A stretch of 63,946 nt of DNA, counting the filler, from Octopus bimaculoides (taxonomy: Eukaryota): assembly GCF_001194135.2 (NCBI RefSeq). It is 7 parts of 6 records of this genome, joined end to end, with 100 filler letters (N's around TTAATTAATTAA, not from the genome) between each part and the next. Parts side by side here need not be neighbours in the genome. Positions count along the whole stretch, not along the records: positions 27,207 to 44,343 come from NC_068981.1; positions 44,444 to 54,026 come from NC_068994.1; 5 more parts are not named here. The stretch is one strand, 5' to 3'. How positions within the stretch are numbered: the first letter of the stretch is position 1; the number at the start of each line of letters is the position of its first letter. The notes under the pieces are model-generated. The model was not told where the DNA came from. It worked only from the letters and a program-made list of their open reading frames with translations, and did no database searches. Positions 33,026 to 51,400 of the stretch are shown piece after piece. Made by a program: the position numbers and the translations under genes.

Positions 33026-33292
33026 AGTCTGTCAGATACTGGCCATGATGAATACCACAAGGTATTGAAAATACGTATTCGCCTTTATATATTTAATCCT
33101 TTATATTGAACACTCAATATTTCATATATTCAGTAAGACATATTCCATATATTCAATAAGACATTCAATACTTCATTTCATTGTACCATCCATTTTTATA
33201 TTATATATTATATATTCCATATTCTATATCCCACATTAATTTTACAAGAATATAAATAAAACATAAAAAACAGACAGAGCTGGAACTCTTTT
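33026..33292 (+). mobile_element. Hammerhead-bearing short repeat, family H2 (Penelope-like terminal repeat/retrozyme-like)
   Basis: About 270 bp, homologous in opposite orientation to 51125-51400. Both copies begin at gtctgtca just upstream of the hammerhead and end near ggaactctttt. Confidence 0.6.
33041..33083 (+). ncRNA. Variant-core minimal hammerhead, family H2
   Basis: GGC-CATGATGA-ATACC acaa GGTAT t-GAAAA-TACGTA-TTC-GCC. Stem III is the palindrome AATACGTATT and the triplet is UUC. Lies in an ABCB intron, antisense to the gene. Confidence 0.55.
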
Positions 33293-34779
33293 AAATAAAA
33301 TAATATATTCCTCTATACACGATCATACAAAACCCTTTTTTTGTATTTACTTTTACNNNNNNNNNNNNNNNNNNNNNNNNNNNNNNNNNNNNNNNNNNNN
33401 NNNNNNNNNNNNNNNNNNNNNNNNNNNNNNNNNNNNNNNNNNNNNNNNNNNNNNNNNNNNNNNNNNNNNNNNNNNNNNNNNNNNNNNNNNNNNNNNNNNN
33501 NNNNNNNNNNNNNNNNNNNNNNNNNNNNNNNNNNNNNNNNNNNNNNNNNNNNNNNNNNNNNNNNNNNNNNNNNNNNNNNNNNNNNNNNNNNNNNNNNNNN
33601 NNNNNNNNNNNNNNNNNNNNNNNNNNNNNNNNNNNNNNNNNNNNNNNNNNNNNNNNNNNNNNNNNNNNNNNNNNNNNNNNNNNNNNNNNNNATATATATA
33701 TATATATACATATATACATATATACATATACACAATTATGTACATATATATATATAGAGAGAGAGAGAAAGAGAGAGAGGGGGGAGAAAGAGAGAGAGAG
33801 AGAGAAAAAGAGAGAGAGAGAGAGAGAAAGAGTGAGAGAGAGAGAAAGAGAGAGAAAGAGTGAGAGAGAGAGAAAGAGAGAGAGAGAAAGTGAGAGAGAG
33901 AGAAAGAGAGAGAGAGAGAAAGCGAGGGATATTATATTATATTATATTATACTATATTTAATAACAGTTGGACTCAGCTTTGTATTGCCTAAAGTTCGAT
34001 GGGCATGCAACACATATCCACCTTGTCAATTGTTTGTTTAGGCCTAAACAACTGGAATCTGAATTTCTGTTAAACTCTCTATTCCATCTCTAAACATCTG
34101 TTATTAAATGCAACTCCAACAAAATAAATGTGTTTAATGCTACTTTCATTTGCTCACTTGTGTGAGTGTGTGTGTGTGTGTGTGTGTGTGTGTGTGTGTG
34201 TGTGTGTGTGTGTGTGTGTGTGTGCATGCGCACATACACACGCACACATATATGTATAAGTCTCACCACACATATGTATCTAGTCTCACAAAGTTAGAAA
34301 ATAAGAGGATATTGATGCCATTGTTGTTGCTATAGAAGATAAAAGAATTTTAAAAAAATATTGTTGGAAGCATTAATGCAAATCAATGTGTCTAATACTC
34401 TTCTCTTTTCTATTTTCTGTTATACAAATAAGTATCTAAATTCGATGTTCTCTCAATGCATTCAATAATTTTTTCATTAGAGAATATCATGTGACAGTGT
34501 TTATACAAAATGTTTATATTATTTCTTTAAAAAGAAGAGAGAAGCCATAGAGTGTTCTTCTCATTTATTAAAAGTCAGAAAAAAAAACCACAGAGAACGA
34601 ATGAAGTGGGATTGGAGTTGGCATTCTATTTTCAGAAACAAGGACAGATAAGGTATGTGACAGAATTATTAAACAAGAACAGCCACAAGCAAAACAGGTA
34701 TGGTAGTTACTTCTGCATATGAATTATATTAAGGACTAGCAGATAAACAGGTTTGTTTTAATGAGGCCCTTCTACAGAC

Positions 34780-35330
34780 TATTTCAGTAACTGACGACAA
34801 CAACTTCATTAGCACAAACGGTGACTCTAATGGACATATCAAACAAAACCATAACGGTGTAGCTTCAACACAAGAAATGAAAAGGGATCAAGATTCCTGG
34901 AATTCTCTAATGTAAATGATCTCACAATTGGCAACACAATCTTCTGGAAATCACTTACCAATCAAGTGAGCACACAAGCCAAATGGATTTTATTATCACT
35001 GGTAAACAGATAGGGAGATGATTCTAAATGCTAGGTCTCTCAGTCTTTCCCACGTAAATAATGTACCTTCCATCATAAATTAGTGGTTAGCAACTTCAAA
35101 ATAAGAGTTACTCTGAATCAGGGACAAAATACGATTTGCAAGAAGACCTGTGAGTTGAAAGAGTCTTTCTTTGGTCATAGGTTCAGAGAAGTATTGAGTG
35201 ACATTTATGACAATAGAGAGAAAGAGATAAGATTTATAACATAGAGCAAAACTAGCTGCTTTTATAGAATAAACTACTGGGAGGTACAGACCAAACCTGT
35301 GATATGGGGTAAACAACTTTACTGGAAGCA
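34780..35330 (+). mobile_element. Degraded RTE-type LINE endonuclease-region fragment
   Basis: Disrupted frames give NGDSNGHI..RNEKGSRFLEFSNVNDLTIGNTIF, like the GDFNGHVG..RN..G..EF..NT.F motif of AP-endonuclease LINE domains. Confidence 0.6.
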
Positions 35331-35490
35331 AATTCAGTAGAGATAGGCTGATCAAGTTAGTGACAGTGAAATGAAGCAAGCTGCAAACAAATTAGGTACA
35401 GGTGAAGTATATAAATACCTTTTCTCTTGGGATCAAACCAAAATTAAGGTGTTCATTTGAATGAAACATTCAGTACACTAATATAAAAAT

Positions 35491-35745
35491 ATAAGTAAAT
35501 GCGCCCTTTTAAAGCCTAGCCAGGCTCATGGGCGCGGTTTCCCAGTTTCAATGGCGTATGTGTTCCCCAGCTGGACGGGACACCAATCCATCGCAGTGTT
35601 ACTCATTTTTGCCAGCTGAGTGGACTGGGGCAATGCGAAATGAAGTGTTTTGCTCAAGAACACAACACGTCGCCCGATCCAGGAATCGAAACCACAATCT
35701 TACAGTCATGGTGTTGATACCCTAACCACTAGGCTACACGCCTCC
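35491..35745 (-). mobile_element. SINE with family C head and a different tail (CpG-rich, young)
   Basis: Head plus ttgctcaagaacac and cagctgagtggactgg core, with a distinct 3' region. Confidence 0.8.
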
Positions 35746-48500: not shown

Positions 48501-48784
48501 CACGCACACGCGCACACACAGACACACACACGGAGATGGGCCTTTATGTCTTTCTTTCTTTCTTTCTTTCTTTCTTTCTTTCTTTCTTTCTTTCTCATAA
48601 GGTTGGTTTATAACTCAGTCTATCTATCTATCTATCTATCTATCTATCTTTCTATCTATCTATCTATCTATCTATCTATCAGTCTGTTTGTCTGTCTGTC
48701 TGTCTGTCTGTCTGCTTATCTATCTATCTATCTATCTATCTATCCATCCATCCATCCATCCATCTATCCTCCATCCATCTATCT

Positions 48785-48965
48785 CTCTCTCTATCTTTCT
48801 CTCTCTCTCTATCTTTCTCTCTCTCTCTATCTTTCTCTCTCTCTCTATCTTTCTCTCTCTCTCTATCTTTCTCTCTCTCTCTATCTTTCTCTCTCTCTCT
48901 ATCTTTCTCTCTCTCTCTATCTTTCTCTCTCTCTCTATCTTTCTCTCTCTCTCTATCTTTCTCTC
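48785..48965. repeat. 18-bp compound microsatellite, about 10 copies
   Basis: (CTATCTTTCTCTCTCTCT)n; it is the source of the spurious IFLSLS/ERERKI ORFs. Confidence 0.9.
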
Positions 48966-51124
48966 TCTTTTTCTCTCTCTCTCGACATTTTCTCTCTGTG
49001 ACACATACTGACATTCTTTCTTGATACATAAAAACACACACACACACACACTCTCTCACACACACACACATACACACGCAGACACACACACACAGACACA
49101 CACACATACTTCGTACACACTTCGTACAAAAACGCTTCGCTCCTACATCATCCACACTCACTTCCACATACGCATTCATGGCGCACAGAAATCACAGCCA
49201 GATGTGCACAAACAAAACATACACGCATATCCCTCTCTACGCAAGCACGCAAATATCCCTACTCAGCCTGCTGTAAATAGATGTCTCTTTCCACGAACTC
49301 ACATTTCCCGCTGTTTCATTTATTCTACTTTCACTTTCTCTTCAACACACTTGATATCCGCATTCTCCCTCTTTTCTCTTCCAGCATTCTCCGCCTCTAT
49401 CTATTTTTCTCATGTATACATTACATACATACATACATACATGCATGTATCTATGCATGCATACATATATACATACATACATTTATACATACATGCATAC
49501 ACACACACACACACACACACACACACACACACACACACACACACACANNNNNNNNNNATATATATATATATATATATATATATATATATATATACACGGA
49601 TATTTACACACACACACACACACACACACACACATATAGATGCATAGGCGCACATATACAGATGCACAAATATCTATCTATCTATCTATCTATCTATCTA
49701 TCTTTCTTTCTCTCTCTGTCTCTGTTTGTCTGTCTATCTCTGTCTGTCCGTCTGTCTGTCTGTCTGTCTGTCTCTCTCTCTCTATATATATATGTATATA
49801 TATATCCGTATATTTATATATATATGCATATATATATGTATACACACACACACAAAACACACACACACACACAAAACACACACACACACACACACACACA
49901 CACACACACACACACACACACACACACANNNNNNNNNNNNNNNNNNNNNNNNNNNNNNNNNNNNNNNNNNNNNNNNNNNNNNNNNNNNNNNNNNNNNNNN
50001 NNNNNNNNNNNNNNNNNNNNNNNNNNNNNNNNNNNNNNNNNNNNNNNNNNNNNNNNNNNNNNNNNNNNNNNNNNNNNNNNNNNNNNNNNNNNNNNNNNNN
50101 NNNNNNNNNNNNNNNNNNNNNNNNNNNNNNNNNNNNNGGGAGATATAGTGAGAAAGTGAGTGAGAGAGGAAGAGAGAGAGAGAGAGAGAATGAGGGACGG
50201 GAAGGGAGAGAGAGAGAAAGAGAGCGAGAGAGAGGGAGATGCTGTAGTTTACTACCGACTTTCTTGTCCTGGTCGATGGTAAATAGGAGAATAATAATAA
50301 TAATAATAATAATAATAATAATAATAATAATAATGATAATAATATTAATAATAATAATAATAATGATAATAATAATAATAATAATAGTAATAATAATAAT
50401 AATCATGATAATAATAATAAAAAATGACGCTATCATGCACGAAAAAAACTGACAGCAAAAACAAAGATCCCGAAGAACTTAAGAGATGCGTACATTTAAA
50501 CTTACATCCATGCATTCCTGCGTAATACATAAATGCACATGTGCATACATGCATATGCTTGCATGCATATGTGTGCTCATACATACAAACATACATACGT
50601 ACATGTATGCATACATACATGCATACGTATGCATATACATAGATGCACAAATATATTCATATAGACATACATGCATACATACATACACATACAGCCACGA
50701 ATATATTTCATATGTACATATATCCATACATACATACACACACACACGTGCATACATACATATATACATACGTGCACACATATACATGCATTTAGATATT
50801 TTAATTAATAAAAATATTCAGTATATGTTATATTTTAAATAGCGATAATACGCCGTGCAATAAGAGAAGAATCGGTAAAATGGTAACGGACCGAGTTCGT
50901 GACCCAGTTCCATAGGCTGTTAGCCCAAAATATTCCAAATGCAAGATACCAAAGTCTGCTGATGGCTATAAGATTCTCGATACACACACACACACACACA
51001 CACACACACACACACACACACACACACACACACACACACACACACACACACACACNNNNNNNNNNNNNNNNNNNNNNNNNNNNNNNNNNNNNNNNNGTAT
51101 ATATATATATATATTATTTTGCTT

Positions 51125-51400
51125 AAAAGAGTTCCAACACTGTCTGTTTTTTATGTTTTATTTATATTCCTGCAGAACCAATGTGGGGTATAGAATATGG
51201 AATATACAATATATAATATAATATACAATATATAATATAAAATAAAATAAACTAAAAATGGATGGCACCATGAAAGAAAGTATTGAATGTAGATGAAATA
51301 TTGAGTGTTCAATATAAAGGATCAAATATATAAATGTAAATATATAAAGGCGACTCGAGTTTCAGGGCTATTTCCCTTCGTCATGGCCGGTATGACAGAC
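51125..51400 (-). mobile_element. Hammerhead-bearing short repeat, family H2
   Basis: Reverse-complement homologue of 33026-33292. Confidence 0.6.
51349..51388 (-). ncRNA. Variant-core minimal hammerhead, family H2
   Basis: Minus strand reads GGC-CATGACGA-AGGG aaatag CCCT-GAAAC-TCGA-GTC-GCC. Stem III is the palindrome ACTCGAGT, the triplet is GUC, and there is an extra A between C3 and U4. Confidence 0.6.

Follow-up and report, generated by a model that had tools for sequence, protein, structure and literature searches.

A hammerhead-like motif with an additional A in its CUGA box, shared by two subfamilies of a short repeat in Octopus bimaculoides

Background

No part of the best-studied small ribozyme is more fixed than the CUGA box, and a short repeat of Octopus bimaculoides raises the question of whether a hammerhead in which this box is interrupted by an additional A can still be a ribozyme and, if so, of what kind. 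We considered a window of O. bimaculoides DNA (the whole stretch analysed, 63,946 nucleotides with filler, from assembly GCF_001194135.2), in whose coordinates all scans and positions are given, and which holds two copies of a hammerhead-like motif with the core CAUGANGA. This variant fails the strict hammerhead test at CUGANGA, yet it looks to be built as a Penelope-type dimer hammerhead. The reading that we prefer, and to which we give an even chance, is that it would be a slowed, dimer-dependent type I hammerhead of Penelope type, belonging to a non-autonomous retroelement, possibly assisted by a protein, and copied from uncut RNA. A natural insertion in the CUGA box of two successful subfamilies would widen the core known to be tolerated, would mean that descriptor searches undercount hammerheads, and bears on what the hammerhead does for Penelope-like elements.

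The motif and the repeat that carries it

Copy 1 occupies positions 33041-33083 (+), with the core C at 33044, the extra A at 33045 and C 33080 as N17, and copy 2 occupies 51349-51388 (-), with the core C at 51385, the extra A at 51384 and C 51352 as N17; in both, the letters agree with those quoted in an earlier note on this DNA. Both copies are numbered by the hammerhead convention. The box pattern matched twice in the window and in none of 100 shuffles, two matches that are not independent because both are copies of one repeat, and these same two copies were the only hammerhead-like matches with CNUGANGA in the window scans.

Each copy stands at the 5' end of an AT-rich repeat of ~300 bp, ~240-270 nt before the 3' end of the repeat, and downstream of the motif the two are 78% identical over ~240 bp. 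Copy 1, the minority form of subfamily A, has a 5' leader (33024..33040, +) that adjoins a (GT)n tract and whose boundary was inferred from the loose ends of mapped reads, then a helix I of 3 bp, the CAUGAUGA core, a helix II of 5 bp, GAAA, a 10-nt palindrome with the predicted cut after C33080, and an AT-rich body with 3' tail (33084..33345, +), followed by an assembly gap at 33357. Copy 2, of subfamily B and on the minus strand throughout, has a leader (51389..51400) that can form 6 bp with the core, extra A included, then the CAUGACGA core, a helix II of 4 bp, GAAA, an 8-nt palindrome with the predicted cut after C51352, and an AT-rich body (51097..51348) that ends in (TA)n ~240 nt past that cut; at every motif position it has the family majority letter. 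No tRNA head was found for the repeat. The AUG created by the extra A was considered as a start codon and rejected, the frame behind it being, by eye, no longer than 7 codons (copy 1) or 20 codons (copy 2).

The topology is that of a type I hammerhead, with three helices on one junction, the ends in helix I and a helix III palindrome that closes in a dimer; helix I has 3 bp, helix II 4-5 bp, and helix III is a perfect palindrome. The GAAA box, the A15.1-U16.1 pair and an NUH site (UUC in copy 1, GUC in copy 2) are all present, and the uninterrupted CUGANGA box is absent, being replaced by the eight-letter core in both copies and in reads of both subfamilies. C and G8 are both there, and the letters fit C3 followed by A3a and C2a followed by A3 alike. 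The palindromic helix III, the short helix I and the extra base after A9 are features of the Penelope-like pseudo-long-terminal-repeat (pLTR) hammerheads, and copy 2 has this A after A9, as does the copy-1 type in its majority form. The G10.1-C11.1 pair directly before G12 is lacking, with one additional base (U or A) before G12, and in subfamily A the first pair of helix II is A-U. In both subfamilies the A at 3a goes together with an A behind A9 and an additional base ahead of G12.

Helices replaced, pairing kept

Both copies share the leader, the core, GAAA and the letters past the predicted cut site, and they show no sequence relationship in helix II, loop 2 or helix III. In simulation, random fillers of the observed lengths gave both helices with a probability of 2.7e-5 for copy 1 and 3.8e-4 for copy 2, and shuffles that kept the composition gave 3.8e-4 and 1.6e-3. 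Among 73 distinct chance matches to the box pattern, drawn from 91 viral and 2 metagenome loci, none had a palindromic helix III and two had a helix II of at least 4 bp. The earlier note had proposed that pairing and palindromy were kept through complete sequence turnover, and these figures (2.7e-5 to 1.6e-3 per copy, 0/73 controls with a palindrome) bear it out; that helices II and III were replaced entirely and still pair points to selection on the fold, for which the evidence is good but two-point. The folding energy of the monomers was ordinary (z from -0.09 to -1.46) and uninformative.

Viral scans gave loose helices for 4 of 72 distinct matches to the extra-A pattern and for 1 of the 94 listed for the canonical one (p = 0.17), and they serve as chance controls only, the canonical scan having given almost no real hammerheads, with no bearing on phages. 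The metagenome match, at two loci, was rejected as one and the same chance match within a prokaryotic open reading frame (ORF) that by eye is ketoacyl-synthase-like, and a GTDB scan with leader plus core returned two loci, neither with a hammerhead behind the match.

Template switching can yield self-complementary DNA, and the turnover might be a frozen accident, in which the A came from a single master copy, other hammerhead families donated helices II and III as a block or fold-back template switching regenerated them, and the core is unselected. The copy-2 family is indeed very young, most of its DNA variants lying under 1-2%, and several other hammerhead-bearing repeats in the window are potential donors; against this, neither helix set matches those of the canonical motifs at 867, 51490 or 44646, both helices changed and still kept their exact distance to the boxes, and both results were strongly amplified. 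We consider such an accident improbable.

The extra A in the family

The state of the family was judged by mapping public DNA contigs and RNA reads onto each copy, over stretches of 179 and 91 nt, neither of which spans both ends of the repeat unit. By these reads each of the two types represents a subfamily of very high copy number. Over the helices of copy 2 the contig depth sums to 1.0-1.3 million in each of the two DNA runs, compared with ~40-60 for long contigs of single loci; summed contig depth is not copy number, overlapping short contigs possibly overcounting up to 31-fold, and we roughly estimate several hundred to about a thousand copies of this type at least. The complete table of differences from copy 2 (32 rows, at least 2% in some run) has no row at 51382-51390 and lists no loss of the extra A, and although indels are undercounted in such tables, as is evident from the copy 1 mapping, the raw RNA depth is steady over the core (108.5, 104.4 and 102.5 per bin in run X21, from 51378 to 51389). 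Copies without the A therefore make up at most a few percent of the copy-2 type. Because this family is young and homogeneous, with DNA variants in the motif at ~2% or less, its near-invariance is no proof of selection. Four DNA variants reach at least 0.4% in the copy 2 motif, three of them fold-neutral (at N7, in loop 2, and a G.U in helix III) and the fourth, at a CpG, disrupting pair 1.1.

For the copy-1 type, the consensus of loose ends before 33051 carries the extra A in DNA (X4, 21 contigs) and in RNA (45 reads in X21, 68 in X22). The earlier note had held that the A is shared by both copies and had named a consensus of plain CUGANGA as what would overturn its proposal; in DNA and RNA reads the A is the family consensus of both subfamilies and no private mutation of the window copies. 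The majority form of the copy-1 type has one additional A before helix II (behind 33050) and A in place of U at 33066, before G12, the latter in about 89% of the DNA depth; this form was assembled from tables, 40 of the 110 difference rows being listed, and not from one continuous sequence. The window's copy 1 is therefore a minority form and probably degenerate.

The loose ends upstream of the copy-2 leader are mixed (agreement 0.63-0.74), the upstream flanks in the reads being heterogeneous. In the reads the family leader extends ~13 nt past the boundary of copy 2 and repeats a 7-letter word, of which copy 1 has one unit, a pattern similar to the optional "tail", or heterogeneous ends, of Penelope-like insertions. 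No head-to-tail tandem units were found, the window copies being solo, and short contigs could conceal arrays. At 51373-51400, six RNA reads with two starts join opposite strands inside the motif, and one DNA contig seems to carry the motif in tandem; such rare inverted or tandem arrangements could permit dimers in cis.

The extra A probably arose within a group of short hammerhead-bearing repeats, since an older relative (44494..44652, -), whose 3' tail is homologous to those of copies 1 and 2 (score 57, against a maximum of 35 in 2000 shuffles), has a decayed hammerhead at 44611-44652 that, parsed by eye, keeps an uninterrupted CUGA box. The repeats of this group end 100-270 nt past the motif, near microsatellites, and plain CUGANGA motifs with a palindromic helix III are found at 867 (-) and 51490 (+). 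The former belongs to a third short repeat with a canonical CUGAUGA hammerhead (820-871, -), an 8-nt palindromic helix III and a (TA)n end ~140 nt downstream. A second repeat family, at 51486-51561 (+) and 6987-7138 (+), carries a canonical hammerhead with a long (49-nt) helix II region; its copy at 51490 lies back to back with copy 2, with an inverted 5' piece at ~51420-51445. An altered-core family in high copy beside canonical sisters in one genome offers a comparison of cleavage rate, copy number and bias between sense and antisense introns.

Predicted folds and the proposed mechanism

In the reading that we prefer, two transcripts would pair via their helix III palindromes into a double hammerhead predicted to be cut after GUC or UUC, and a single molecule is predicted to take an off fold that pairs its extra A to U16.1 or to the leader. 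Folding predictions for the bare motifs are consistent with this. The minimum-energy dimer of copy 2 is the double hammerhead, at -24.9 kcal/mol where two monomers reach -20.2, and in its majority form the copy-1 type has the same best predicted dimer (-20.7 against -10.4 kcal/mol). In the copy 2 monomer the extra A is predicted to pair with U16.1 with P 0.81 (0.77 with flanks). Lunse et al. reportedly describe dimers, too, for minimal Penelope hammerheads.

The extra A may lower the rate of cutting, the fold not being abolished, and we propose that it is for this lowered rate that a copy is tolerated in a sense intron. A Penelope-like reverse transcriptase (RT) encoded elsewhere would begin to copy the RNA close to the 3' tail that the repeats share, the uncut RNA being the template, and the copied RNA would be inserted into microsatellite-rich targets; both window copies may keep the whole motif because uncut RNA serves as this template. 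The motif, its state in the family, the replaced helices and their context are observed, the dimer and off folds are predicted, and we infer that the RNA cuts, that a partner supplies the enzyme and that the A brings an advantage.

A bolder version makes CAUGANGA a working eight-letter core, fixed in hundreds to thousands of repeat copies, with the A as a safety catch that locks the cut site of single molecules until two RNAs pair by their palindromes. We regard this as doubtful; if it were true, a whole class would have been missed by every search with a CUGANGA descriptor. It is rather unlikely, too, that the core is fully active, with the A flipped out cheaply between C3 and U4 or offset by the additional bases where helix II begins, and with dimer dependence alone shielding host transcripts. 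The conjunction of the 3a A, the A after A9 and the extra base before G12 in both subfamilies could be a coupled design, and for some natural insertions, of the U13a type, an outward position that hardly alters the structure has been proposed (in the sections of PMC3088659 used here). Against full activity, the same sections report that insertions next to C3 slow natural hammerheads, though they are not lethal (425-fold below the consensus in 4 M LiCl), and that an insertion after A6 is harmful; moreover, the motif is found uncut both in genomic copies and in RNA reads. The slowing without loss of function by insertions next to C3 speaks for the preferred reading.

The host gene

An ABCB gene (P-glycoprotein-like) has its final four coding exons on the minus strand at 42516-42713, 39255-39461, 30984-31136 and 28298-28489 (span 28298..42713); they encode residues 970-1217 of the 1217-aa protein P0002 and match it at 98-100%. 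The earlier note had described the intronic copy as antisense to ABCB and so unable to cut the pre-mRNA. The antisense placement holds for copy 1, in the intron 31137-39254, and not for copy 2, which has the same strand as the ABCB coding sequence and lies 8.7 kb 5' of the exon beginning with residue 970. The window is joined from parts, positions 27,207-44,343 being from NC_068981.1 and 44,444-54,026 from NC_068994.1, and neighbours in it need not be neighbours in the genome; if the scaffold is right, copy 2 is very likely in a sense intron of ABCB, and for this copy the escape through antisense placement falls away. Residues 1-969, which need 2.9 kb of coding sequence, have no exon in the window, including the 21 kb of 42714-63946 (-), and the gaps between 42.7 and 51.4 kb sum to about 1.4 kb; either the intron is very long, or gaps hide the 5' exons, or the scaffold is misjoined. 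A sense-intron placement of copy 2, if the scaffold is right, fits a low activity of the lone copy.

Transcripts and observations against the preferred reading

RNA reads were found for both types (394 + 305 for copy 1 and 87 + 147 for copy 2, in about 6% of each run), with first mates on both strands, so that the reads do not give the strand. A>G and T>C differences are dense in RNA (35 and 37 places in 179 nt) and almost absent from the DNA contigs, the DNA runs being from other individuals than the RNA runs; this density in repeat RNA is what we would expect of adenosine-to-inosine (A-to-I) editing of double-stranded RNA by ADAR. Together with the richness in microsatellites, it is in keeping with a coleoid cephalopod. 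In copy 2 (51360-51381, X21 and X23), A-to-G changes reach catalytic positions, in ~8-13% of reads at A6, ~8-11% at A15.1 and up to 6% at A14, and none is listed at the extra A; editing of catalytic A's could silence part of the transcripts.

Several observations weigh against the preferred reading. All four RNA mappings (X21 and X22 for copy 1, X23 and X21 for copy 2) were without a pile-up of RNA ends as a signature of cleavage, and the RNA depth is flat over 51352/51351, the predicted site of copy 2. No Rfam hammerhead model was among the 150 matches listed of 183 at E up to 1, for the extra-A and the canonical window motifs alike; Rfam did give microsatellite-driven microRNA matches, below threshold. 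The base of helix II is non-standard (A-U in subfamily B, A.A in the majority of subfamily A), covariation is supported by two subfamilies only, and no ORF for an RT with GIY-YIG adjoins either copy (by a list of ORFs of at least 90 aa, and by Pfam on 107 minus-strand frames past 42.8 kb and 10 other frames). The folding predictions are also divided: for the window's copy 1 the double hammerhead is never the best, the best predicted dimer pairing A9 away, and for copy 2 with 12-nt flanks the best predicted dimer is an off fold with the leader-core hairpin (-31.1 against -27.7). In the copy-1 types the extra A pairs with U16.1 with P of only 0.05-0.32, and with flanks its deletion raises the predicted stability; its effect on the off fold of copy 2 is ~1 kcal/mol. 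The 6-bp leader-core hairpin of copy 2 is matched by 4% of shuffled leaders (p = 0.04), and leader pairing reaches 5 bp in a canonical window copy also. The part of a "brake" for the extra A is accordingly put forward as a hypothesis, to which the folding models lend weak support.

These observations bring in the most serious rival, that the ribozyme is dead and its fold retained for RNA dimerisation via the palindrome or for recognition by a borrowed reverse transcriptase, which we think unlikely but to be reckoned with. It would account for RNA reads that pass the site with neither step nor end pile-up and for the very likely sense-intron position of copy 2, if the scaffold is right, and under the C2a plus A3 reading the C3-G8 pair would be lost. 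In the parts of PMC11167929 used here, moreover, cleavage-dead mutants of a Penelope-like element insert normally in vitro. This rival has to face the retention of G5, A6, G8, A9, G12, A13, A14, the A15.1-U16.1 pair and C17 while the helices were replaced; a binding role would not obviously require the NUH site either, an argument that is not strong, the leader being conserved too. With regard to the preferred reading, the same parts of PMC11167929 report that a Penelope-like element has no need of cleavage to insert, that its ribozyme is protein-assisted, that a ribozyme able to cut in vitro left no ends in RNA-seq and that reverse transcription starts inside the RNA, downstream of the ribozyme.

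Neighbouring elements

Directly 5' of copy 1 there is a 550-bp element with 110-bp inverted ends (32415-32971). Fragments of a mariner-type transposase (Pfam HTH_48 and Transposase_1) lie at 51749-52141 (+) and 41290-41586 (+).

Comparison with known systems

Animal non-LTR (long terminal repeat) retrozymes, as described in the portions of PMC7229834 and bioRxiv 10.64898/2026.07.22.740005 consulted, are non-coding, AT-rich, have a type I hammerhead and are found in RNA, as is the octopus repeat, and it is also similar to them in their units of 170-400 nt, their link to Penelope-like elements and the occurrence of solo monomers. Unlike them, the octopus copies in the window are solo and not tandem, with heterogeneous flanks, a short helix I and a non-canonical core. 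In the sections of PMC13282606 on the annotation of octopus repeats used here, hammerheads are not mentioned.

The Penelope-type consensus, in the portion of PMC4209133 (Cervera and de la Pena 2014) consulted, carries a base behind A9 and a helix III that is palindromic; its dimers are of low activity and its helices vary widely. The octopus motif is like the minimal type I Penelope-like hammerheads of that portion in being type I, in the shortness of helix I, in the base that follows A9 and in the palindrome by which helix III would form dimers, and also in its U- or AU-rich flanks, its many dispersed single copies and helix sequences that differ among families. It is unlike them in the extra A of the CUGA box, the longer palindrome (8-10 nt), the lack of the G10.1-C11.1 pair next to G12 and the lack of an adjacent RT-endonuclease ORF. 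No CAUGA core occurs in the alignment rows of PMC4209133 examined, and the sole "cauga" in those of its supplements that were searched lies in a flank. An insertion between C3 and U4 (3a), or a CAUGA core, was likewise not met with in the portions of the literature searched, the Penelope-variant alignments of Lunse et al. standing outside them, and we provisionally consider the core variant new to the literature.

The nearest parallels for the insertion itself are the natural hammerheads of Perreault et al. 2011 (PMC3088659, in the sections used here), which have insertions at 2a/2b, A6a and U13a and come from phage or environmental DNA. Like these variants, the octopus motif gains one base within the conserved core or beside it and keeps an otherwise intact fold, for which a lower rate is expected. 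The sites differ, since in those variants they are between helix I and C3, after A6 and in GAAA, and in the octopus the A stands between C3 and U4, or as C2a plus A3; and unlike the phage and environmental variants, the octopus carries its extra A fixed in a high-copy animal repeat.

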